Shown here piece by piece: positions 3,786 to 24,956 of a DNA stretch of 34,510 nucleotides (the first letter of the stretch is position 1; every line of letters begins with the position of its first letter). Origin of the DNA: Candidatus Pacearchaeota archaeon (GTDB taxonomy: Archaea; Nanobdellota; Nanobdellia; Pacearchaeales; GW2011-AR1); contig JASFEO010000014.1 in NCBI GenBank assembly GCA_050124795.1, positions 1 through 34,510 of the forward strand, given 5' to 3'. The notes under the pieces were generated by a model that saw only the letters and a list, made by a program, of their open reading frames with translations, made no database searches and was not told the DNA's origin. A program made the position numbers and the translations under genes.

Positions 3786-4344
3786 ACTCAAACATCCCCA
3801 TTGCCAATTTAATTCTGTCTTTAACATCAACTGTTTTTGTAATTGGAACATCTGAAACTTGTTTTTCACCTGCATAATTTGCTAACTCAAATATACTTAT
3901 TCCAAGAAGCCGGGCAGTTTTTTCCATGCTTATTCCATGCTCATGAATTTTCAAAGCCTTGTTTATCGACGCTTTTCTAAAAACATCCTGAATATATTTT
4001 TTCAAATTCCCAGACAACTTATCAATCGTCCTCCTGATTAATTCAATATTTTGTTTTAATTTTTTTTCATCATTTTTCTTAATTGCTTTTATTGACTCAT
4101 CAATGCAAGAAACTATTATATTGTAAAAATTATTCCATCCAGGATAATCGCGATATTCCTGTCTCTCGAGAATTTTACTCAAAGAGTAAATTATCACTGC
4201 AATTGCAATGTTGTCAGGGTCCTGTGTTCTCGACGCTGTATTGTTTGTCTGGTTGCTTAATTCTTTTAATTTGATTAAATCAGATTTTTTTATTGCTAAT
4301 TTCACTTCCTGAAAAATCCTTAATATATTCTCTTTTTCCTGCAT
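3784..4344 (-). CDS. Hypothetical protein with C-terminal UPF0175/COG2886-like HTH
   Basis: Helical N-terminus; GISMEKTARLLGISIFEL HTH-like segment. Confidence 0.55.
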   Translation of the reverse strand: MQEKENILRIFQEVKLAIKKSDLIKLKELSNQTNNTASRTQDPDNIAIAVIIYSLSKILERQEYRDYPGWNNFYNIIVSCIDESIKAIKKNDEKKLKQNIELIRRTIDKLSGNLKKYIQDVFRKASINKALKIHEHGISMEKTARLLGISIFELANYAGEKQVSDVPITKTVDVKDRIKLAMGMFE

Positions 4345-4409
4345 CCCAAAAAAAGATAAAAGAAGTTAATAAATGTTAACTTTTTATATACAAATTATTT
4401 TAACTAATT

Positions 4410-5282
4410 ATGAAAACTGTTTGCACGCATGACGGAAGATTTCACACAGATGAAGTTTTTGCAATTGCAATCTTGAAGATTTTCTATAAAGAAATAAAAA
4501 TAATAAGAACAAGGGATGAAAAAGTGTTTAGAAAAACTGACTTAAGAGTAGATATTGGCAGAAGTTATAATGCAAAAACAGGAGACTTTGACCATCATCA
4601 AAATGAATTTAATTTAATGAGAAAAAACAAAATCCCTTATGCTTCAGCAGGATTAATTTGGAAACATTTTGGAAAAAAATTAGTAAATTCAGAAAAAGCA
4701 TTTAATTATATAGACGAAAAACTGATTCAGCCGATTGATGCCATAGATTCAGGAGTGGATATAACATTAAAGGAAATTATCTCTAATTATGGGATTGGGG
4801 AGATTACAAATTCCTTTCTTCCAGTATGGTACGAAGAAAAAAATTATGATAAATCATTTAAGCAGGTTTTAGGATTTGCAAGTGACTTATTGAAAAGAGA
4901 AATTAAATTAGCAAATGGAATTGAGAAAGCAGAGGAGATTGTCAAAAAAGCGATTTCAAAATCAAAGAATAAAGATTATATCATCTTAGAAAAAAATGTT
5001 CCTTGGCGAAAATATGTTATTGAAAATACAAAAATTAAATTTGTAGTAGAGCCAAATTCAGGTGGGTTTTGGAGTGTTTATACAGTAAGAACTAAGATAA
5101 ATAATTTTGAAGACAGGAAATCATTTCCAAAAAAATGGGCAGATTTACAAAAAGAAAAATTAGTAAAAGTTACAGGAGTTGAAGATGCCATGTTTTGCCA
5201 TAAAGATCTTTTCACTGCGGTTGCAAAATCGCGTGAAGGCGCAATTAAACTAGCAGAACTTGCAATTAAAAATAAAAATTAA
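4410..5282 (+). CDS. MYG1 family (UPF0160) metal-dependent hydrolase/exonuclease
   Basis: THDGRFHTDE, IRTRD, VDIG..Y..FDHHQ, ASAGLIWKHFG, IDAIDSG, R..FP..W, FCH motifs. Confidence 0.92.
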   Translation: MKTVCTHDGRFHTDEVFAIAILKIFYKEIKIIRTRDEKVFRKTDLRVDIGRSYNAKTGDFDHHQNEFNLMRKNKIPYASAGLIWKHFGKKLVNSEKAFNYIDEKLIQPIDAIDSGVDITLKEIISNYGIGEITNSFLPVWYEEKNYDKSFKQVLGFASDLLKREIKLANGIEKAEEIVKKAISKSKNKDYIILEKNVPWRKYVIENTKIKFVVEPNSGGFWSVYTVRTKINNFEDRKSFPKKWADLQKEKLVKVTGVEDAMFCHKDLFTAVAKSREGAIKLAELAIKNKN

Positions 5283-5667: not shown

Positions 5668-6267
5668 ATGTTTTATCTAACAATTGTTGAAGACCATGTA
5701 AGAGTTGAGCCAAAGCTGTTCGGGCTTCCTACTGACGAGGCTGTTGACAGGCAATTGCGGGAAACTTACAAAGAACATTATGACAAAGAACTCGGTCAGG
5801 TCGTCTCAATTGTCGAGGTTTTGAAAATCAATGAAGGAGTAATTATCCCTGGTGACGGGGCAGCGTATTACAGATGCACATTTAAACTTCTTGTTTGGAA
5901 ACCAGAGTTGCAGGAATTGACTTACGGAATTATTTCAGAGATTACAAGTTTCGGTGCATTTATCGACATGGGTGTTATGAAAGGAATGATTCACATCTCG
6001 CAAACAATGGATGACTATGTTAGTTTTTCAAAAGCAAATTCACTCTTAGGGAAATCCTCAAAGCGAAGTTTAAAACAGGGCGACTTAGTAATGGCAAGAG
6101 TTGTTTCAATTTCTCACAAAGGAGACGAACCAAAAATTGGTCTCACCATGAGACAGCCCGGACTTGGAAAACTTGATTGGATAAAAGAAGATGCAGCAAA
6201 AAAGAAAAAAGCAGAAGAAAAAGCATTAAAGGCTGAAAATGCAAAAGCAAAAGGAGGGAAGAAATAA
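5668..6267 (+). CDS. rpoE1: DNA-directed RNA polymerase subunit Rpo7 (E')
   Basis: VRVEP..FG, GVIIPGDGAAY, S1 domain FGAFIDMG..GMIHISQ, KIGLTMRQPGLGKLDW. Confidence 0.96.
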   Translation: MFYLTIVEDHVRVEPKLFGLPTDEAVDRQLRETYKEHYDKELGQVVSIVEVLKINEGVIIPGDGAAYYRCTFKLLVWKPELQELTYGIISEITSFGAFIDMGVMKGMIHISQTMDDYVSFSKANSLLGKSSKRSLKQGDLVMARVVSISHKGDEPKIGLTMRQPGLGKLDWIKEDAAKKKKAEEKALKAENAKAKGGKK

Positions 6268-6527
6268 TGGCACAACCATTAGAAAAGACTGGGGAAGAAC
6301 CAAAAAGAATACAAAAACTCTCAAGAATGTGGGGGGGTAAGGAGACTGGACATCTAATTAGGACAAAACAAAGTTATGCAGTTATAACTGAATCACATAT
6401 GAATATATTACAAGTTTATGATACAGAACATAATTTTATTGATGGCTGTTGCTTAAGTGATTCTATTGAAGCATTAAAATTACGTGCACAAAGTTCTTTA
6501 TTTAAGAGGAGGGAATATAGATGGTAA
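6267..6527 (+). CDS. Hypothetical protein inserted in rpoE1-spt4 junction
   Basis: TAATG coupling to rpoE1, AGGAGG SD; no family recognised. Confidence 0.55.
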   Translation: MAQPLEKTGEEPKRIQKLSRMWGGKETGHLIRTKQSYAVITESHMNILQVYDTEHNFIDGCCLSDSIEALKLRAQSSLFKRREYRW

Positions 6528-6838
6528 AACAAAAAAATAAAATTATTGATTCAGCAAAAGATTTGGGTATTTTTGCAAAAACATTTTTTGATTATGCAGT
6601 TGATACTAGTTTTAATTATTTATGTGATACTAAAGTTTCTTCGTTTTTTTCTTTATCTCAAAAAAAAGATAAACTAATTAATAAATTAGATCAAGCTATT
6701 TCCTTTGAGCAAGAAGGAGAGATGGTTTATAGATTAGCAAGAATTTGTAATTCAGTAGAATATGCTAAAGCAGGAAGAAGGAGAATTAATAGAGGAAGAG
6801 AATTAAAAAGAATGGTTTATACTGGGAGGATTAATTAA
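6521..6838 (+). CDS. Hypothetical protein inserted in rpoE1-spt4 junction
   Basis: GAGGAGG SD; first 15 nt identical to the start of spt4. Confidence 0.55.
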   Translation: MVKQKNKIIDSAKDLGIFAKTFFDYAVDTSFNYLCDTKVSSFFSLSQKKDKLINKLDQAISFEQEGEMVYRLARICNSVEYAKAGRRRINRGRELKRMVYTGRIN

Positions 6839-6839
6839 A

Positions 6840-7028
6840 ATGGTAAAACAAAAAGCATGCAAAATCTGCAATAAAATTTATACAACTGCAGAATGCCCTA
6901 ATTGCGGCGCCAAAGAATCAACTGAAACTGTGAAAGGCAGAATTTATATCCGCGATTCTGAAAAATCTGAAATTGCAAAAAAACTAAATCTAAAAGGCAA
7001 AGGAAATTTTGCAATAAAAACAAGATAA
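6840..7028 (+). CDS. spt4: Transcription elongation factor Spt4 (RpoE'')
   Basis: KACKIC..ECPNCG..G.I.I.D.EKSEIAKKL..G.FAIK. Confidence 0.93.
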   Translation: MVKQKACKICNKIYTTAECPNCGAKESTETVKGRIYIRDSEKSEIAKKLNLKGKGNFAIKTR

Positions 7029-7450
7029 TGGAATTTAAAATAATTAGTGATGTTGAAAATAAATTATTTAACCGTCGTGAAATTGAAGGAGAAGTCATTT
7101 CAGATTCTGCTCCAAAAAGAGAAGATGTTGCAAAAATAGTTTCAGAAAAAGTTAAAGTTTCTGAGGACTCAATAAAAATAAAAACAATCCAGGCAAAATT
7201 CGGTTCGCGCATTTTTGTGGTTGTTGTAAATGTTTATGATTCTCCTGAAGATAAAAACAAAATTGAAAGAAAGACAAAAAAAGAAAAAGAGTTAGAAGAA
7301 AAAAGAAAAAAGGCAATTGAAGAAACACAAGCTGAAGAAAGCAAAGAATCTGAACCAATCCCTGAACAGCAAACTGGCGAGGACAAAGTTATTGAAGAAA
7401 CTAAAACTGAAGAGAAAAAAGAAGAAGTTAAGGAGGAGAAAAATGAATAA
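7028..7450 (+). CDS. rps24e: 30S ribosomal protein S24e with charged C-terminal extension
   Basis: ENKLFNRREI, P.RE.V, I..KFG, VYDS; operon context. Confidence 0.88.
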   Translation: MEFKIISDVENKLFNRREIEGEVISDSAPKREDVAKIVSEKVKVSEDSIKIKTIQAKFGSRIFVVVVNVYDSPEDKNKIERKTKKEKELEEKRKKAIEETQAEESKESEPIPEQQTGEDKVIEETKTEEKKEEVKEEKNE

Positions 7451-7712
7451 TTACGCAATGAATTCAAAAGAAGTTGTTTATGGGGCGGGGCTAATAGGAA
7501 CTGTAGCATTCGCAAAGATGGCATGTTCTCCGAGGAAAAAACCAGATTACCTTAAGAAACAAATAAGGGGGGGGTTTCATCTTGGTCTTGGGAGAATGAT
7601 TGGTTCTATGAAATTAGTTAAGTCGGGGATTAGAAAAATTCATGAAGGCAAAAGAGAGGAAAGAATCGCTATGAATAATTTTGAAAGAGAAGTCTTAGCA
7701 GGAACTACATAA
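7443..7712 (+). CDS. Hypothetical protein inserted between rps24e and rps27ae
   Basis: ATG overlaps the rps24e end, GGAGG SD; short hydrophobic segment near the N-terminus. Confidence 0.5.
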
Positions 7713-7713
7713 A

Positions 7714-7950
7714 ATGGCAAAAAAGAAAAAAGTCAAAAAGGGAAAAAAACCGCACAAGAACAAGACAACTAGCAAGAAATATACAAAGTATAAAATCGAA
7801 GGTGATAAAGTTGCTCGTGAGAGATTTTGTCCTCGATGCGGACCAGGAGTTTTTTTATTAAACTCTAAAGGAAGACTCTATTGCGGAAAATGTCATTATT
7901 CTGAATTTGCCGGCAAAGCAAAAGAAGAAAAAGTTGAAGAGAAAAAATAA
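7714..7950 (+). CDS. rps27ae: 30S ribosomal protein S27ae (eS31)
   Basis: [12 protein letters not shown]...[11 protein letters not shown]. Confidence 0.95.
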
Positions 7951-16999: not shown

Positions 17000-18880
17000 A
17001 TGGCGAATACTTATGGCGCAAGTGAAATCAAAGTTCTGGAAGGTTTGGAAGGAGTAAGACGAAGACCGGCAATGTATATTGGTTCAACAGGTAAAGAAGG
17101 TTTGCACCACTTAGTCTATGAAGTAGTTGATAATTCTGTTGACGAACACATGGCTGGAAATGGAGATTTAATAAAAGTTACAATTAATGAAGATGGTTCA
17201 TGCACTGTTGAAGATAATGGAAGAGGGATTCCTGTTGGTATGCATCCGCAATTAAAAATTCCTGCAGTTCAGGTCGCCTTAACAAAACTTCATGCAGGCG
17301 GAAAGTTCGACAAGAAGTCCTACGCAATTTCAGGAGGTCTTCACGGAGTTGGAATTTCATGTGTTAATGCACTAAGCAAAAAATTAATTGTTGAAGTAAA
17401 ACAAAATGGAAAAGTTCACAAACAGGAATATTCCAGAGGTACAGCAAAAACAAAATTAAAAATTATCGGAAAGTGCGGGAACAATGAGACCGGAACAAGA
17501 ATAACTTTCTGGCCTGACGAAGAAATTTTCTCAACTCTTAATTTTGATTACAAAGTTTTGGAAACAAGGTTTAGAGAAATTGCATATTTAAATGCAGGAT
17601 TAAAGATAATTTTAAAAGATAAAAACAAAAATAAATCTGAAGAGTTTTTTGCTGCCGGCGGTTTGGTTGAATTTGTCAAGTGGATTAATAAAACAAAAGA
17701 TGTTTTGCATAAGCCAATTTATTTCAAGCGGGAAGGCGACGGCACAGCAGTTGATATTTCAGTTCAGTATAATTCAGGCTACAGGGAAAACATTTTTGGA
17801 TTTGTAAACACAATAAACACAGTTGAAGGAGGGACGCATGTCTCAGGTTTCAAGACTGCATTAACAAGAGTGATTAATGATTACGCAAAGAAAAAAGGTT
17901 TGTTAAAACAGGGAAGTTTATCCGGGGATGACGTTAGAGAAGGAATTACTGCAATTGTGAGCATTAAAATCGGAGACCCGCAGTTTGAGGGGCAGACAAA
18001 AACAAAATTAGGAAATTCCGAAGTCAAGGGTTTTGTTGATTCAATTGCAAGTTCTGCATTAAGCGAGTTTTTCGAGGAGAACCCGGCAGTTGCAAAAAAA
18101 ATAACTTCAAAAGCACTTGATTCTGCAAAGGCAAGACTCGCAGCAAAAAAAGCAAAAGATTTAGTCAGAAGAAAAAACGCATTTTCATTAGGAGGTCTTC
18201 CTGGGAAATTAACGGATTGTTCTGATAAAAAATCTGAGAATACTGAACTTTATATTGTTGAAGGAAAGAGCGCAGCAGGAAGCGCAAAGGGGGGGCGTGA
18301 TAGAAAGACTCAGGCTATTTTACCTCTTCGTGGGAAAATTCTGAATGTTGAAAAATCAAATCCAGTAAGAGCCTTGTCAAGTGAGGAAATCACAAACATG
18401 ATAACTGCAATTGGCACAGGAGTTGGAGACCAGTTTGATTTAAAGAGATTAAGATATTCAAAAATTGTAATAATGACTGATGCAGATGTCGACGGTGAGC
18501 ATATTAAAACTTTGTTACTTACCTTCTTTTTCAGGTTCACCCCCGAGTTAATTAAAGAAGGTCATATCTATGCAGCAATGCCCCCGCTTTTTAGAATCAG
18601 AAAGAAAAAGGATTATTATGTTTATACTGAAGAAGAACTTCGCAAGACAGTTGAAAAACTTAATGCAACAAATGTTACAAGATTCAAAGGTTTAGGAGAA
18701 ATGACAGAAACGCAGCTTTGGGATACGACGATGAACCCTAAGACAAGGAAGATAAAAAAGATTTTTATTGAAGATGCAGTTGAGGCTGATCAGGTTTTTT
18801 CATTATTAATGGGCGATGATGTGCAGGCGCGTAAAGAATTTATTCAGGAAAATGCAAAGGAGGCTAATTTGGATGTATAA
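17000..18880 (+). CDS. gyrB: DNA gyrase subunit B
   Basis: LEGLEGVRRRPAMYIG, EVVDNS.DE, DNGRGIP, GGLHGVG, FEGQTK, PLRGKILNV, MTDADVDG, RFKGLGEM. Confidence 0.97.
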   Translation: MANTYGASEIKVLEGLEGVRRRPAMYIGSTGKEGLHHLVYEVVDNSVDEHMAGNGDLIKVTINEDGSCTVEDNGRGIPVGMHPQLKIPAVQVALTKLHAGGKFDKKSYAISGGLHGVGISCVNALSKKLIVEVKQNGKVHKQEYSRGTAKTKLKIIGKCGNNETGTRITFWPDEEIFSTLNFDYKVLETRFREIAYLNAGLKIILKDKNKNKSEEFFAAGGLVEFVKWINKTKDVLHKPIYFKREGDGTAVDISVQYNSGYRENIFGFVNTINTVEGGTHVSGFKTALTRVINDYAKKKGLLKQGSLSGDDVREGITAIVSIKIGDPQFEGQTKTKLGNSEVKGFVDSIASSALSEFFEENPAVAKKITSKALDSAKARLAAKKAKDLVRRKNAFSLGGLPGKLTDCSDKKSENTELYIVEGKSAAGSAKGGRDRKTQAILPLRGKILNVEKSNPVRALSSEEITNMITAIGTGVGDQFDLKRLRYSKIVIMTDADVDGEHIKTLLLTFFFRFTPELIKEGHIYAAMPPLFRIRKKKDYYVYTEEELRKTVEKLNATNVTRFKGLGEMTETQLWDTTMNPKTRKIKKIFIEDAVEADQVFSLLMGDDVQARKEFIQENAKEANLDV

Positions 18881-18881
18881 A

Positions 18882-19475
18882 ATGGAAAATAATTATTTAA
18901 TAAAAAACCTTGAACAACATATTAATGTTATGGAGAGTTTAATTGGACAGGAAGAAAATATAACAGAGGCAAATAAAAAAATTGTTGATTGTTTTATAAA
19001 TAATGGATGCATTTTAGTCATGGGAAACGGCGGGTCTTTTGCAGATGCAATTCATATTGAAGGAGAACTTGTTGGAAGATTCAAACTTGACAGAAGACCC
19101 TTTGCTGTCAAAGCTGCAGGAACAAGTGGCGCTGTTTTAACTGCATTATCAAATGATTTTTCTTTTGAAGATGCTTATGCAAGAGAGGTGGAAGCATATC
19201 TAAGAAAAGGGGATGTTCTGTGGGGCATAACCACTTCAGGAAATTCAAAGAATGTAATTAAAGCTTTTGAAAAAGGACAGGAAATCGGAACCTACAATCT
19301 TTTAATGAGCGGAAAAACTGGAGGAAAAATTCATGAAAAAAACTTAGCAAATTTAGAGATTTTAGTTAATTCAACAGAAACTGCAAGGATACAGGAAGCT
19401 CATGAATTTATTTATCACACTATGTGCGAACAGATTGAAAAGAGGATGGTTAATTATTTTGGAGGGGATAAATAA
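18882..19475 (+). CDS. gmhA: SIS-domain phosphoheptose isomerase (GmhA-like)
   Basis: GNGGSFADA.H..ELVGRF, LTALSND.SF, TTSGNS.NV, TARIQEAH..H; start set to ATG 18882. Confidence 0.85.
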   Translation: MENNYLIKNLEQHINVMESLIGQEENITEANKKIVDCFINNGCILVMGNGGSFADAIHIEGELVGRFKLDRRPFAVKAAGTSGAVLTALSNDFSFEDAYAREVEAYLRKGDVLWGITTSGNSKNVIKAFEKGQEIGTYNLLMSGKTGGKIHEKNLANLEILVNSTETARIQEAHEFIYHTMCEQIEKRMVNYFGGDK

Positions 19476-20146
19476 TGGTAAAAAATTTTCAGGAAAAAAT
19501 GGATGAAAAATTTTATGAAGAATTAAGAGAACAGATACAAGATTATTTTGAGAAAGGCGGAAGTCATGCATTTGACCATACACAAAGGGTTTTTAATTTA
19601 GCCCTGCATTTATCAAAAGAAAAAGAAATTGATTTAGATATTTTAAAAGCATCGGTTTTACTTCATGATATTGCAAGAAAAAAGCAGGATGAACTTAATG
19701 GAGAAATTTGCCATGCACAAGAAGGTGCAAAAATTGCCAAAGAAATTTTAGAAAAAACTGATTTTCCAGAGGACAAAATAGAAAAGGTGGTTCATGCAAT
19801 TGAGGCTCATCGCCAGAGTAGAGGACCTGAACCTGAAACAGAAGAAGCTAAAATTTTAAGTGATGCAGATAAACTTGATGCATTAGGAGCAATAACTATT
19901 GGAGGGATATTTTCAACAGGAGGAAAAGTTGATAGACCTTTGTATGACCCAAAAATCCCTCCAAAAGAAGATTACAAAAATAAAGGTTATTCTGATACAA
20001 CAATTAATGGTTTTTATGAAAAATTATTAAAATTAAAACCAGAGAATTTTTACACTGAAGAGGCTAAGAAATTAGCAAAAGGTAGATATAAATTTGTTGA
20101 GGAATTTTTAGAGAGATTTCTTAAAGAATGGGATGGTGAATTATAA
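19475..20146 (+). CDS. HD-domain phosphohydrolase (YedJ-like)
   Basis: H..DHT.RV, LLHDI, HA..GA, I..H, DADKLDALGA. Confidence 0.9.
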   Translation: MVKNFQEKMDEKFYEELREQIQDYFEKGGSHAFDHTQRVFNLALHLSKEKEIDLDILKASVLLHDIARKKQDELNGEICHAQEGAKIAKEILEKTDFPEDKIEKVVHAIEAHRQSRGPEPETEEAKILSDADKLDALGAITIGGIFSTGGKVDRPLYDPKIPPKEDYKNKGYSDTTINGFYEKLLKLKPENFYTEEAKKLAKGRYKFVEEFLERFLKEWDGEL

Positions 20147-20147
20147 A

Positions 20148-20510
20148 ATGATAAACGAATTTCAGGAAAAAATAAAAAAGTTTGATGAGACCCGAGGCTG
20201 GGATAAGCATTGGAATATTAAAGACTTATGTTTAAACATGAATGAAGAAATTGGAGAATTATGGCATTTAATTAAATGGATTCCAGAGGAAAAACAAAAA
20301 GAAATTATTAAAGAAAATCAAAATGAAGCAGACAATTTTATTGGTGATGTTTTGTTTATAATTTTGAAAATGGCAAATCAACTTGGGACAGATGCTGAAT
20401 ATGAATTGCAGAAAGTTCTGGAGGAATATGAAAAAAGAATGCCTGTGGGAAAAATGAAAGAAGTCGGGCATGCAAATAAATTAGCAGGAGGTCATGACGA
20501 GAAGGAGTAA
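20148..20510 (+). CDS. MazG-like nucleotide pyrophosphohydrolase
   Basis: RGW, MNEEIGEL, IGDVLF..L.MAN.LG. Confidence 0.75.
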   Translation: MINEFQEKIKKFDETRGWDKHWNIKDLCLNMNEEIGELWHLIKWIPEEKQKEIIKENQNEADNFIGDVLFIILKMANQLGTDAEYELQKVLEEYEKRMPVGKMKEVGHANKLAGGHDEKE

Positions 20511-20511
20511 A

Positions 20512-21018
20512 ATGATAACTTATTTTTTTGAGGATTATTGGAACATTAATGATAAAGATGATGAAAATGCTCAGTTATCCGGGATAGCAATAGTAAGATT
20601 ATCAGAATTTTTTGGGATTAATTTTGGTAGTGAGATATGGAATAAGTTTTGTTTGGAAGTTTTAACAAGGCCGAATTATCCTCGGTCAGCAGGACTTTAT
20701 CTTCCATCAATTAATGGAAAAAATGCAAAAATAATACTACCAGAATATAGCCCTAATATTGAAAATAGGGAAACTGCAGGGCATGAGGCCAGTCATTTTT
20801 TGCATGAGCTTGTTAATCCAGATGGCTTTTTCGTAGAGGGAGTAGTTTCCCCTCAGAAATTATACCGAGAATGCATTGCTACTATTGGAGAAAAAAGATT
20901 TACCGGAATGTTAAAAGGTAATCAATATGATGCACAAAGATTAATTAGGCTTAAGCCCTCTGAAGTTTATGAGAAGTCTAATCAATTATTTAAAATAAGA
21001 AAGGAGTTAACAAATTAA
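20512..21018 (+). CDS. Hypothetical protein with HExxH zinc-metalloprotease motif
   Basis: AGLY..I.L....TAGHEASHFLH...E. Confidence 0.55.
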   Translation: MITYFFEDYWNINDKDDENAQLSGIAIVRLSEFFGINFGSEIWNKFCLEVLTRPNYPRSAGLYLPSINGKNAKIILPEYSPNIENRETAGHEASHFLHELVNPDGFFVEGVVSPQKLYRECIATIGEKRFTGMLKGNQYDAQRLIRLKPSEVYEKSNQLFKIRKELTN

Positions 21019-21245
21019 AATGAATAAAATAAAAATAACTTATAATAATGAACGAGAGATTATAAAAGATTCTTGCCTTTTTTCAGATTATGAAAATTTT
21101 TGTTCACACCCAAATATTGAAAAAAGAAAATTAATATGCAAATATGGGTTAACAGAAATAAATGTTCCAGAGAACTGTCCTTTAAGAAAAAAGTCTTTAA
21201 TAACTAAAATTGAATTATTAACAAATTAAAATGAGTAAAATAAAA
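21007..21245 (+). repeat. 28-nt direct repeat (27/28 identical) at 21007-21034 and 21218-21245 flanking one ORF
   Basis: TTAACAAATTAAAATGA[A/G]TAAAATAAAA; each copy spans a stop codon and the next start codon. Confidence 0.8.
21020..21229 (+). CDS. Small four-Cys hypothetical protein
   Basis: 69 aa, SCLF..FCSHP..ICK..PENCPL; TAAAATG coupling on both sides. Confidence 0.6.
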   Translation: MNKIKITYNNEREIIKDSCLFSDYENFCSHPNIEKRKLICKYGLTEINVPENCPLRKKSLITKIELLTN

Positions 21246-21509
21246 CATAGGTATAGTAGCGAGGTTGAGAATTTTCAAAAAGAGATTTTAGGACGAGTTA
21301 AAGATTTAATTCTTCAGGGAATTGAACAAGAAAAATGCTCAAAGCTAGAAAAATGCAATTATATCTTAAGACAAATCAAAGCAAGTAATTTCTCAATTCC
21401 AAATGCCCATGGATATTTAACTCTTATTTGTGAAAAATATCCTGGTGCTTGTGAAGTTAATTTGCAGGATGATTCAGAAAGATTAAATAATTTAGAGGTT
21501 ATAGTTTAA
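21231..21509 (+). CDS. Small four-Cys hypothetical protein
   Basis: 92 aa, C-x5-C..C-x6-C; coupled junctions. Confidence 0.55.
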   Translation: MSKIKHRYSSEVENFQKEILGRVKDLILQGIEQEKCSKLEKCNYILRQIKASNFSIPNAHGYLTLICEKYPGACEVNLQDDSERLNNLEVIV

Positions 21510-21510
21510 A

Positions 21511-21840
21511 ATGCCAAAGAAAAAATCAAAACTAGCAACACCTGCATGGATTTTAGAAGGTTATGATTCTCCTGAAGATTATGCAAAAGCTCAGGGCAAA
21601 AGTGTCAAGAAAAAAAAGGAAGGAAGAGTTTTCAAAGTTAGAATGTGCCCGAAATGCAAGAGTGAGGATGTCAGGCTTGTTTTAAGTAACAGCGACGCTG
21701 AAGAAGGCGGAGGACGAGAATGGGAATGCCGCAAATGCGGCTGGACTGGTGATGATGTTATTGAAGAAGAATTAAATGAAGAAGAATTTATGGAATTCAT
21801 GGATAGAAATGACAAGGAGGATGAAGAAGATGCCAATTGA
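21511..21840 (+). CDS. Zn-ribbon protein with basic N-terminus and acidic tail
   Basis: CPKCKS..WECRKCGW. Confidence 0.7.
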   Translation: MPKKKSKLATPAWILEGYDSPEDYAKAQGKSVKKKKEGRVFKVRMCPKCKSEDVRLVLSNSDAEEGGGREWECRKCGWTGDDVIEEELNEEEFMEFMDRNDKEDEEDAN

Positions 21841-22093
21841 ATATGATTATATTGACGACGAAGATGATAATGAAGAAGAAGTTGTGATTGACCTTGACAG
21901 CGAAGAAACAGAAGAAATTGATGTTTGGGAATTTGCACTTGATGATGAAGATATTGACGAATTAATTGAAATGCTAAAAGAATTAAAAGAAACAAAACAG
22001 CATTTTCATTTTGACCTTGACGAAGCAAATGAACTTGTGATTCATCATGCTGAAGAAATCGACGATGAAGAATCTGAGGAGGAAGAGGAATGA
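21830..22093 (+). CDS. Highly acidic hypothetical protein (87 aa)
   Basis: Start MPIEY after GGAGG SD; 42 of 87 residues are D/E. Confidence 0.65.
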   Translation: MPIEYDYIDDEDDNEEEVVIDLDSEETEEIDVWEFALDDEDIDELIEMLKELKETKQHFHFDLDEANELVIHHAEEIDDEESEEEEE

Positions 22094-22467
22094 GGATAAC
22101 AATTATTGGAAGCATGAAGTTTTATGAAAAGTTTGAGGAGTTAAAAAAAGAATTAGAAGAACAAGGTAATCAGATTATTGGAATCCCTCTTCCTGATGAG
22201 GTTTATCCAAATGAGACTAATATAAAATTAAAAGCAATGGAAGATTTTAATGATGATCTGGAAAAGTCAGATGCAATTCTGGTTGCTAATTATGATAAAG
22301 ATGAAAAAACCTGCCATATAGGAATTAACTCTATAATGGAAATTGGAATGGCTTTTAACAGAAATAAAAAAATATTCTTATTAAATAAAATCCCTGAAAA
22401 ATGTAAAGATGAATTAGAAGCAATAAACGTTATTGAATTAAATGGAGACTTAGCTAAATTAAAATGA
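22090..22467 (+). CDS. Nucleoside 2-deoxyribosyltransferase-like protein
   Basis: [35 protein letters not shown]. Confidence 0.65.
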
Positions 22468-24956
22468 CAGAAGAAAAAGAAAATATTGAAGAGCCTAAAT
22501 GCGACAACACACTTAAAGACTGCTCAACTGAAAAAGGAGTAATTAATTCAGAAGTTTCAGGTGAAATGAAAAAGGCATATTTAGATTATGCAATGAGTGT
22601 TATTGTTTCACGTGCCTTGCCGTCAATTGAAGATGGAATGAAACCTGTTCAGCGGCGTATTTTATATGTTATGAACAAAATGGGATTAAAACCAAATGTG
22701 CAGACAAGAAAATCAGCAACAGTTGTCGGTGAAGTTATGGGTAAGTATCATCCTCATGGCGATTCTGCGATTTATGATGCAATGGTTAGACTGGCGCAGG
22801 ACTTTTCATTAAGATATCCATTAGTATTTGGTCAGGGAAATTTTGGTTCAATCGACGGAGACCCGCCGGCTGCAATGCGTTATACTGAGGCTAAATTAAT
22901 GAACATCTCTGCTGAACTAATCGAGGATATTGAAAAAGAGACAGTTAAGTTTGTTGATAATTATGACGGCTCAACAAAAGAACCTGAACTTCTTCCGGGC
23001 AAATTGCCGACTTTAATGTTAAACGGCGCAACAGGAATTGCCGTTGGTATGGCAACAAATATTCCTCCGCATAATTTAACTGAAACTGTTGAAGCAATAA
23101 ATTCTTATATTAAAAATCCCGACATTTCAATTGATGAACTTTGCGAGATTGTCAAAGGTCCTGATTTCCCAACTGGCGGCTATGTGCAAGGAGACATGAA
23201 TGAACTTTACAAAACAGGAAGAGGAAGACTCATCATGCGCGGGAAAGTCACAACTGAAAATATTAAAAATAAAGAGGCAGTTGTCATAACTGAAATTCCC
23301 TATATGCTAAACAAATCAACATTAGTCGAACAAATCGCGAACCTTATCCAAAATAAAAAAATAAAAGATGTCGCAGACCTAAGAGATGAATCAAATAAGG
23401 GAAAAATCAGGATTGTCATTGAATTAAAAAAAGGCGCAAGTTCAAAATTCGTAATCAACTCTTTATACAAATATACAAGATTGCAGGATTCATTTAATGT
23501 TAATTTCTTAGCACTTGTCGACGGCCAGCCAAAGATTTTGGATTTGAAAAATGTCATGGAAGAATATGTAAAATACAGGAAGAAAATTATCACAAACAGA
23601 ACAAAGTATGATTTAAAAAAAGCAAAAGAACGGCAAGAAATTGTCGAAGGACTTCTCATAGCTCTCAAAAATATTGATGCAGTGATCAGTTTGATAAAGA
23701 AGTCAAAAGCAAAAGCCGAGGCTCTTGAAGGATTGATTAAAAAATTTAAATTAACAAAAAGACAGGCAGAAGCAGTTTTAGAAACCAAGTTGCAGCAGCT
23801 TACAAGTTTAGAAACTGAAAAACTAAAAAAAGAATCTGAAGAATTAAAAAAGAAGATAAGTGAGTTTGAGAAAATCTTAGCAAACATAAAAGAAGTTTTG
23901 AAAATTATTGTAAAAGAAGTTAATGAATTAAAAAATAAATATGGAGACAACAGAAAAACCCAGATTTTAAAGAGGATTAGTGAACTCACTGAAAAAGACT
24001 TAGTTCAGAAAACTGATGTTGTTGTGACAATTACTGACAAGGGTTATTGCAAAAGAATGAATGTGAAAACTTATAAAGAACAAAAGCGGGGAGGCAAAGG
24101 AGTTATTGGAAGTAATTTAGCTACGGGGGATTTTGTAAAACAAATGATAACCTGCTCAACTCATGATTACTTATTATTTTTCACAACAAGAGGAAGAGTC
24201 CTGTGGCTTAAAACTTATGATTTGCCGTCAGCAGAAAGATACAGCAAGGGAAAAGCAATTATTAACTTATTAAACTTAAGAGATGAAAGAGTGACAAATG
24301 TTATTTCTGTTAAAAATTTCGACGACTCATTATTCATGGCAACTAAAAAAGGAATTGTAAAAAAGATTTCATTATCTAATTTTTCAAAACCAAGGGCTTC
24401 GGGAATCAAGGCAATTAATCTCCCCAACGATAATTCAGACGAACTAATTGGAGTTGAAATTGTAAAACCAAAACAGGAAGTCTGCATTGCAACTAAAAAA
24501 GGTCAGGCAATAAGATTTAATTCTAATGATGTCAGAAGCATGGGCAGAGCAAGTTATGGAGTGACAGGAATCAAATTAGGAAAAGAAGATGAAGTTGTGA
24601 GCATGGAAATTTTGTCAACTGAGGCAATTTTAACAATCACAAGAAAAGGTTATGGCAAAAGAACTTTAGTTGAAGACTATAGAAAAACTGCAAGAGCGGG
24701 CAAAGGTGTGATTAATTTAAAAATAACTCCAAAAACAGGCGACGTTGTAACAACAGTTTCAGTAAATTCCGACGACAGCATAATTATTACAACTGCAAAG
24801 GGGCTTGTCATGCGAACAACTTTGAAAAATATTAGAATTATGGGAAGGGCAACGCAAGGTGTGAGAATTGTAAAACTGCAGCAAGGTGATTATGTAACAG
24901 ATTTAGTAAAAGTTGTTGATAACGAAGTTAACGGGGAAACTGTCGGGGCAGAATAA
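22464..24956 (+). CDS. gyrA: DNA gyrase subunit A
   Basis: [42 protein letters not shown] catalytic Tyr, GyrA-box QKRGGKG, beta-pinwheel repeats. Confidence 0.97.

Follow-up and report, generated by a model that had tools for sequence, protein, structure and literature searches.

In integron arrays, promoterless open reading frame (ORF) units stand in tandem and in one orientation, differ in content between relatives and are read from an upstream promoter. ORFans and transferred genes also join native operons and are expressed from the native promoter; the close 'canonical' spacings are reported to form later by deletion, and the mechanism of insertion into operons is described as unclear (Price, Arkin and Alm 2006, PMC1480536). 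At the overlaps and very short spacers of unidirectional genes, often those of subunits of the same complex, translation can be coupled by termination and reinitiation (PMC10666635). For gyrase, Villain et al. (2022, PMC9348778) report the enzyme in most Woesearchaeota and Pacearchaeota and suggest that the clustering of gyrB and gyrA is possibly under positive selection. Here we describe the gyrB–gyrA interval of a DPANN archaeon (Candidatus Pacearchaeota), in which nine genes are packed between the two subunit genes. The window is the whole of contig JASFEO010000014.1, 34,510 nt (C14 in our numbering), from a metagenome-assembled genome (MAG; G000) of 1.06 Mb and 32% G+C that is 90% complete, with 4% estimated contamination.

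The upstream anchor is gyrB (17000–18880, + strand; Pfam DNA_gyraseB, Toprim, HATPase_c and DNA_gyraseB_C) and the downstream anchor gyrA (22464–24956, + strand; DNA_topoisoIV and six DNA_gyraseA_C repeats). Positions 18882–22467 between them are filled by nine ORFs, all on the + strand, as the first-pass annotation had described, and the ten junctions from gyrB to gyrA measure, in order, +1, -1, +1, +1, +1, +1, +1, -11, -4 and -4 nt. We read gyrB to gyrA as a long operon with a hypervariable slot in which whole genes are nested, without a dedicated recombinase or attachment site, and give this reading a probability of roughly 60%. The genes would form one co-directional, translationally coupled operon, co-transcribed and with its ORFans translated. 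Three layers may be distinguished: a lineage-specific core (ORF7 and ORF8), recurrent small enzymes from a limited pool, here SIS, HD, MazG and a nucleoside 2-deoxyribosyltransferase-like (NDT-like) protein, and lineage-specific ORFans (ORF4 to ORF6). Whole ORFs would be gained, lost and moved over genus-level time.

A first set of relatives comprised 40 genomes, all from other genera. Of these, 32 have both gyrase genes on the same contig, with a median gap of 433 nt and a maximum of 2085 nt, compared with 3583 nt in the window; gyrB was found in 39 and gyrA in 41 of 41 genomes searched. A Zn-ribbon protein resembling ORF7 recurred in the ORF lists of these intervals. Further loci were ascertained through the presence of the Zn-ribbon gene (ORF7), whose alignment we scanned against one genome per species (170 relatives); the best 80 of the 170 were kept, and 73 of the 80 hold both the gyrB and the gyrA flank. 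Across relatives, the interval contains 0 to 9 genes. Among the 74 loci made up of these 73 and the window, 7, 28, 20, 7, 2, 3, 4, 1 and 2 have one to nine interval genes, respectively, and + strand genes cover a median of 98% of the interval. In the 73 loci, the inserted genes are all co-directional, and 233 of the 296 junctions are tight, that is, -20 to +5 nt between same-strand neighbours. Genes were called with a custom simple codon-score caller, which gave 1400 ORFs genome-wide, beyond the supplied ORF lists, and missed the Zn-ribbon gene in one locus (L162). Clustering the 233 interval proteins of the 74 loci yielded 58 families, 39 of them singletons. Counting the window, the cytidylyltransferase-like family occurs in 15 loci, HD in 14, HAD in 7, Nudix, a transmembrane/Cys (TM-Cys) protein and NDT-like in 6 each, and SIS and tRNA_bind in 4 each. 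Also in the pool, by Pfam name, are PNPOx, DUF1653, ACT, GNAT, HIT, CYTH, methyltransferase, His_Phos_1, serine hydrolase, NYN, ADP-ribosylglycohydrolase, GrpB, peptidase S51, GDSL and B3_4. The interior of the slot is thus hypervariable, with a Zn-ribbon and acidic core and whole-ORF passengers drawn from a limited pool plus ORFans.

Alignment of the interval across relatives, a check proposed in the first-pass annotation, bore out the gain and loss of ORFs as whole units bounded by stop and start codons. Loci whose gyrB 3' ends are 88–90% identical differ by whole genes, with contents such as Zn-ribbon–cytidylyltransferase, Nudix–Zn-ribbon–cytidylyltransferase, Nudix–Zn-ribbon and Zn-ribbon–acidic. 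The difference runs from the ATG of the extra gene to 1–2 nt past its stop, with the flanking genes intact, and ATGA or AATGG is common to both ends of the gained or lost unit; the junctions of L136 are not clean and have spacers of ~50 and ~100 nt. Genes also change side: HD, cytidylyltransferase, HAD and NDT-like genes may precede or follow the Zn-ribbon gene, and the HD tree (13 of the 14 rows, a 43-aa fragment being excluded) shows two or more changes in the position of HD relative to that gene. Order is nevertheless partly conserved, since Nudix (6/6), TM-Cys (6/6) and SIS (4/4) always precede the Zn-ribbon gene and the acidic gene (26/26) always follows it. This partial order, together with the many nucleotide and phosphoester enzymes (HD, MazG, Nudix, HIT, NDT-like, CYTH, His_Phos and cytidylyltransferase), would suit a functional super-operon in which enzymes of the nucleotide pool or of DNA precursors are co-expressed with gyrase, an ancestral array having been lost differentially and nothing captured. 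We regard that explanation as improbable: the 39 singleton families include a lipase, a peptidase, a GNAT protein and ORFans, several families have switched sides, and MazG sits in another operon in relatives, the same families also nesting between pheS and pheT.

The passengers in the window illustrate the turnover. ORF1 (18882–19475, +) encodes a SIS-domain, GmhA/DiaA-like protein that passes the SIS_2 cut-off (E = 3.7e-20, 72.8 bits against 27) and scores 156.8 bits against TIGR00441, the GmhA equivalog (cut-off 209.45), and 87.5 against DiaA (cut-off 352). It is a recurrent passenger: SIS genes occupy the gyrase slot of L121, L147 and L166, right after or near gyrB, and none was found in any of 24 same-family relatives. 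The HD phosphohydrolase of ORF2 (19475–20146, +; PF01966, E = 1.6e-15, 57.8 bits, above the cut-off of 22) is likewise recurrent and carries an added head of eight codons, discussed below; in metagenome contigs, an ORF2 query found 14 loci at 57% identity or less, none near gyrase or another gene of the array. ORF3 (20148–20510, +) is a MazG-like NTP pyrophosphatase with weak matches to Pfam MazG (21.6 bits, cut-off 27) and MazG-like (18.5 bits, cut-off 22). Its orthologs, at 53–62% identity, lie between pheS and pheT in all five relatives that hold a close one (G008, G027, G020, G017 and G018), and we conclude that a resident MazG gene moved into the gyrase slot in the source genome. ORF9 (22090–22467, +), of a recurrent passenger type, is NDT-like with a weak match to PF05014 (17.3 bits, cut-off 28.8); it has one homolog, in the interval of L115, and a second NDT-like family is present in six intervals. 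The first-pass annotation had called the nine ORFs unrelated, which is true of their sequences but overlooks that five of the nine families recur in this interval in other genera. No paralog of any of the nine was found in the source genome. PADLOC matches to defence genes were weak (E = 1e-5 to 7e-3) and were set aside.

The third layer consists of genes with few or no relatives, and Pfam and NCBIfam gave no family for ORF4, ORF5, ORF6 or, in the core, ORF8. ORF4 (20512–21018, +) is a HExxH near-ORFan without a Pfam, NCBIfam or PADLOC family that matches itself alone among 5.8 billion proteins; an ORF4 query of metagenome contigs gave no close relative. A search of 1.84 billion proteins returned two remote relatives (E = 2.4e-5 and 1.6e-4), which have in common with ORF4 a GHExxHFxH stretch that resembles a metal site. 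The 69-aa ORFan ORF5 (21020–21229, +), bracketed by a direct repeat, also matches only itself among 5.8 billion proteins, on 2 contigs, and has two weak matches among 150 family genomes. ORF6 (21231–21509, +) encodes a small four-Cys protein of a sparse family; four of 150 other family genomes gave a match, the best being that of G012 (E = 4e-15, residues 21–79).

Two of the nine genes behave differently. The first-pass annotation had counted ORF7 and ORF8 among its cassettes, whereas both turned out to be conserved residents. ORF7 (21511–21840, +), a Zn-ribbon protein without a Pfam or NCBIfam family, lies downstream of gyrB and upstream of gyrA in 73 of the 73 loci with both flanks; the remaining 7 loci, cut off by a contig edge, agree with this placement. 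Of 255 genomes sampled from the same family, 126 have the gene, in a single copy; in 45 genomes from eight other families of the order it was not found. Its invariant residues are TPxW, CPxC and CxxC, followed by an acidic C-terminal helix. The model of ORF7 (predicted local distance difference test score, pLDDT, 69.3) has no fold match in the PDB at E = 1e-3 or better, the family profile matches 13 PDB sequences (E up to 1), all generic zinc ribbons, and in the ESM Atlas the protein falls in 'hypothetical protein' clusters of Nanobdellota. ORF8 (21830–22093, +) encodes an acidic protein with a conserved core of ~45 residues between acidic tails, and its start at 21830 (MPIEY...) agrees with the MPIEF... 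of its homologs. The family occurs in 26 intervals, the window and 25 others; in each it stands downstream of the Zn-ribbon gene, in 23 of them as the immediate neighbour. No lead for ORF8 scored above 0.78. Judged by their strict synteny, ORF7 and ORF8 are probably gyrase-associated and are candidate partners of the enzyme. In bacteria, YacG binds GyrB and blocks DNA binding. YacG, a small zinc-finger protein, is an inhibitor of bacterial gyrase (PMC2490753, PMC4083091). We rejected an identification of ORF7 with YacG (PF03884), as ORF7 has no Pfam match at E up to 0.01 and no YacG chain is among the 13 PDB sequences.

The anchors themselves vary in another respect. Intein-like split matches, in frames of 1061–1578 aa, were seen in gyrA of G006, G009, G017, G018, G030 and G032 and in gyrB of G011, G012, G014, G018, G027, G030 and G040; gyrB and gyrA of the window have no inteins. 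The RNA polymerase A subunit (C1:9479–12976) is one unsplit ORF of 1165 aa, and Topo VI subunit A (TP6A_N) had no match in the 90%-complete source genome.

The nesting slot is not special to gyrase, as the same nesting is seen in other essential operons and is extreme in the source genome. In the same relatives, gaps of at least 250 nt occur in 25 of 32 gyrB–gyrA, 14 of 36 pheS–pheT and 5 of 34 rpoB–rpoA pairs. The pheS–pheT gap reaches at most 1278 nt in the relatives and is 1726 nt in the source genome, where four genes fill it (G000:C19:2748–4475; L178); the rpoB–rpoA gap reaches at most 518 nt in the relatives and is -8 nt in the source genome. By eye, the L178 genes are a 210-aa NYN-like gene, a 116-aa MazG-like gene and ORFs of 88 and 111 aa; the last two are 17/24 identical over codons 2–9. 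The L3-to-L15 ribosomal operon of the source genome (G000:C2:4930–21602; L179) holds 24 Pfam-family genes and 17 interleaved ORFs of 54–124 aa without a Pfam family, each tightly joined between ribosomal genes and of native-like codon usage. In four relatives, the filled slots of this operon number 0 (G014), 0 (G023), 4 (G002) and 9 (G008), and only 1 of the 17 ORFs had any match in these genomes. Within the window, the rpoE(Rpb7)-spt4-S24e-S27ae operon (5668–7950) contains three additional ORFs without a family (6267–6527, 6521–6838 and 7443–7712). Homologs of ORF6 in G012 (L070) and G145 (L071) are nested inside ribosomal-protein operons; by eye, the former lies between L35Ae and L10e and the latter between L7Ae-like and S28e-like genes. 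The pool that supplies the recurrent layer elsewhere with Nudix, HIT, HAD, cytidylyltransferase and tRNA-binding proteins would also fill other two-subunit operons.

Co-oriented, promoterless, variable and ORF-sized units are also what integron-like cassette capture, with its own recombinase and recombination sites, would produce, an explanation to which we give very little weight. Pfam searches (E up to 0.01 for 11 array proteins and up to 1e-5 for 36 other window ORFs of at least 60 aa) found no integrase or transposase family among 47 window proteins, the rest of the genome not being scanned for recombinases. No attC-like hairpin was found at the junctions, the 13 inverted-repeat pairs in 18700–22700 having arms 38–3487 nt apart (no attC model was run), and there is no room for attC-like sites because the junctions measure -11 to +1 nt. 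The units are single-copy, and many operons are nested alike. The first-pass annotation had raised the possibility of a dedicated capture system; with no integrase or transposase in the window, no space for attachment sites and no multicopy units, that proposal found no support, and an integron-like dedicated system behind the slot is unlikely. Other sources for the nested genes were also considered and rejected. Genome-wide, 84 small ORFs are nested tightly on both sides, and only 10 of the 84 have any paralog, which excludes one multicopy mobile family; the codon usage of nested ORFs is native-like. A viral origin was rejected as well, as neither a tblastn search of phage records with ORF4 nor a scan of viral contigs with ORF6 gave a match. 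An artefact of assembly or binning, for which one could cite the 4% estimated contamination of the MAG, is barely credible: the longest exact repeat word is 17 nt, too short for misjoining at usual k, the records of ORF4 and ORF5 come from two contigs, composition and strand skew stay uniform over 17–25 kb of the window, and comparable arrays occur in many independent assemblies.

How the units enter is a separate matter, on which the junctions bear. The first-pass annotation had drawn attention to TAAAATG junctions; the motif is there, although at six junctions and not five. Among 1013 same-strand neighbour pairs genome-wide, 388 are tight, 142 have ATGA overlaps and 82 read TAAAATG, and TAAAATG is therefore a junction habit of the whole genome. 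Six of ten is still an enrichment (binomial P = 4e-5 relative to all pairs, 0.008 relative to tight ones), and just three tight runs in the genome (17, 14 and 12 junctions) are longer than the ten of the array. In the related intervals, +1 junctions are more common at accessory boundaries (83 of 202) than between core genes (21 of 94; Fisher P = 0.0017, which overstates the evidence because the loci are kin), and 84 of these 104 +1 junctions read TAAAATG.

The first-pass annotation had also described a chain of similar junctions, each resembling its neighbour. We compared windows from -20 to +23 around each start, scored by the best ungapped local match. Against random tight junctions, the mean of the nine neighbouring pairs in the array is high (P = 0.0012, and 0.006 without the top pair), but this reflects the junction type that the pairs share. 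The type-matched null, 6903 TAAAATG-by-TAAAATG pairs from outside the array, has a mean of 8.9, a 99th percentile of 15 and a maximum of 23. The four TAAAATG-type neighbouring pairs of the array score 11, 8, 25 and 8 and the remaining five 8, 12, 7, 8 and 5, the 12 being the ORF2/ORF3 pair, borderline by score. Eight of the nine pairs are accordingly at chance, and the chained similarity is not borne out as more than that. Of the similarities listed, the 27/28-nt repeat near 21020–21229 is real and, at 25 against a null maximum of 23, is the sole array pair to exceed the null.

This direct repeat has its first copy at 21007–21047 (+), comprising the last 12 nt of ORF4, the stop, 1 nt, and the start and first codons of ORF5, and its second at 21218–21258 (+), comprising the end of ORF5, the stop, 1 nt, and the start and first codons of ORF6. 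The core (21007–21034 and 21218–21245) is identical at 27 of 28 positions and extends to 34/41 over the full copies; no further copy exists in the 1.06 Mb genome with up to 3 mismatches allowed. The repeat thus reaches ~9–13 codons into the downstream gene. From the junction on, in-register identity of ORF5 and ORF6 is 15/15, 12/15, 9/15 and 7/15 and then falls to background, and no similarity is seen between the gene bodies, for which BLASTP gives E = 0.3 and the DNA comparison a local score of 20 (null mean 20.3). The possibility that ORF5 is a diverged or frameshifted copy of ORF6 is ruled out for the gene bodies, which are unrelated at the protein and DNA levels.

A second case of shared heads involves ORF2 and ORF3, which are 26/32 identical around their starts and 19/24 identical over codons 2–9. 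The six best metagenome homologs of the HD protein align to ORF2 from residue 9 on, the HD protein of L147 begins at the equivalent of Met9 of ORF2, and the MazG orthologs align to ORF3 from residues 2–4; ORF2 therefore has an added head that resembles the native head of ORF3. Outside the array, the 105-aa ORF at 6521–6838 and the next gene, Spt4, begin with the same 15 nt (MVKQK). Genome-wide, 12 of 1013 adjacent pairs are at least 17/24 identical over codons 2–9, against 0.66 expected from 200,000 random pairs. Six of the 12 are true paralogs (five pairs on C8 and one on C11), and no paralogy is detectable in the other six: for four of these, the rest of the proteins scores 26–37, the HD/MazG pair is judged on its different families, and one C11 pair was left unchecked. 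The six non-paralogous pairs by themselves exceed the 0.66 expected; two belong to the gyrase slot, a third is found between pheS and pheT and a fourth beside L39e. Two arrays of paralogs were noted in passing. At G000:C8:32796–35994, seven tandem pentapeptide-repeat genes (59–359 aa) have identical 5' ends (at least 43 nt) and near-identical 3' ends; the array adjoins genes that by eye are plasmid- or virus-like and may represent contamination, or repeats that recombine or were collapsed. At G000:C3:18810–19495, paralogous genes of 119 and 109 aa lie, by eye, between S19e and L39e, with a junction score of 23.

Shared heads of this kind might have arisen by local tandem duplication, gene conversion or convergence of start contexts, unrelated to gene entry. 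True tandem paralogs give a like signal (the five C8 pairs and the 109/119-aa pair on C3), identity at the ORF5 repeat decays gradually from the junction, and ORF5 and ORF6 both have four Cys and a LIC-KY stretch. We find this explanation doubtful, as the bodies of ORF5 and ORF6 are dissimilar, HD and MazG are different folds, and the homologs of ORF2 lack the extension that makes up its shared head.

Alternatively, template switching or recombination at homologous junctions may copy or move ORF units and in doing so duplicate the junction and the head of the downstream gene, with no dedicated enzyme involved. The repeat that brackets ORF5, the head of ORF2, the start of the ORF at 6521, the six non-paralogous head-sharing pairs, the microhomology at both ends of unit-exact indels and the enrichment of +1 junctions at accessory boundaries all fit such a process. 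Two single cases among the relatives do so too: in L113 (about 1890–2230), a 97-aa singleton directly after gyrB has an exact 18-nt junction repeat on both sides, and in L164 (about 4250–4715), a cytidylyltransferase gene is flanked by a 16–17-nt repeat that includes the last three Zn-ribbon codons. Against it, eight of the nine neighbouring pairs in the array are at chance, no donor copy of any unit was found in the source genome, and A-rich, low-complexity heads inflate similarity. In the 73 related intervals, adjacent junctions score 7.0 and non-adjacent ones 6.6 (one-sided P = 0.06), with scores of at least 14 in 5 of 223 adjacent and 0 of 342 non-adjacent pairs, and heads at least 17/24 identical number 1 in 216 against 0.58 expected, which is no excess. 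This null and the chance-level junctions of the array count against insertion by junction microhomology, unless its footprints erode quickly. We consider insertion by junction microhomology, with duplication of the start region, possible, although the odds are against it, and place the same odds on template switching or recombination of this kind as the general mechanism.

A bolder form of this idea treats the stop/start junction of these genome-reduced archaea as a generic, enzyme-independent docking site, through which ORF units would be copied or moved between essential operons while the junction and head are duplicated, which would let the newcomer be translated and preserve the essential gene. 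The source genome, with its 17 ribosomal-operon ORFans and nine gyrBA genes, might then have been caught in a recent burst, footprints having eroded in older insertions. This form is tentative, and we think it unlikely.

Under the preferred reading of a long operon with a whole-gene nesting slot, the expression of passengers would ride on the host operon, and only changes that keep the flow of ribosomes to the essential downstream gene would survive. Deletion and recombination should be easy between the short junction motifs, which recur at each gene boundary. Together, this ribosome-flow filter and recombination between junction motifs would account for the exact stop/start boundaries and the TAAAATG junctions. 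As the footprints at ORF5/ORF6 and ORF2/ORF3 suggest, some insertions may have left a second copy of the junction and of the downstream gene's opening codons, which would have given the newcomer a working start. Several observations weigh against this reading. All relatives belong to other genera, so no single gain or loss is polarised or dated, and the 80 loci, the best of 170 relatives, entered the set because they have the Zn-ribbon gene. The footprint step has to contend with the null in the 73 intervals, and the excess of shared heads (12/1013 against 0.66) and the +1 enrichment at accessory boundaries both hint at an insertion process more specific than passive filtering.

The entry of genes into operons is treated as an open question by Price et al. 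(2006, PMC1480536), and the slot offers a natural, high-frequency case in the most constrained operons; the unit-exact events and the few fresh-looking footprints make the question testable. The clade-wide Zn-ribbon protein with its acidic partner is a candidate new archaeal gyrase partner, as far as conserved gene order can tell, and for annotators the nested ORFans of DPANN operons are a regular feature and not noise. Our literature search turned up no report of intervening gyrB–gyrA genes in DPANN, nor of ORFs interleaved in DPANN operons, which is no proof of absence, and we saw no mention of such intervening genes in Villain et al. (2022, PMC9348778).

Of the systems introduced at the outset, coupled gene pairs resemble the array in that all ten junctions lie between -11 and +1 nt, the spacing from which coupling is read; here, in contrast, the chain passes through unrelated passengers between the two subunits. 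The analogy of ORF7 with YacG is at most functional, both being small zinc-binding proteins and ORF7 having its tie to gyrase by gene position; unlike YacG, ORF7 is encoded between gyrB and gyrA and has its own TPxW head and acidic C-terminal helix, with no sequence or fold match between the two. As in integron arrays, content differs between close loci, here those with 88–90% identical gyrB 3' ends; unlike integrons, the gyrase slot has no IntI-type gene in the window and neither attI/attC nor room for them, its units are single-copy and sit inside an essential operon, and other operons are patterned alike. The closest counterpart is the operon insertion of Price et al. (2006), with which ORF4 and ORF5 agree in being lineage-restricted, on the same strand and joined by +1 junctions on both sides. 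The differences are that up to nine genes stand here between essential subunit genes and 17 in one ribosomal operon, and that the junctions are mostly +1 TAAAATG, with whole-gene turnover between genera and some start-region duplications. The gyrB–gyrA slot is an extreme, essential-operon variant of ORFan operon insertion.

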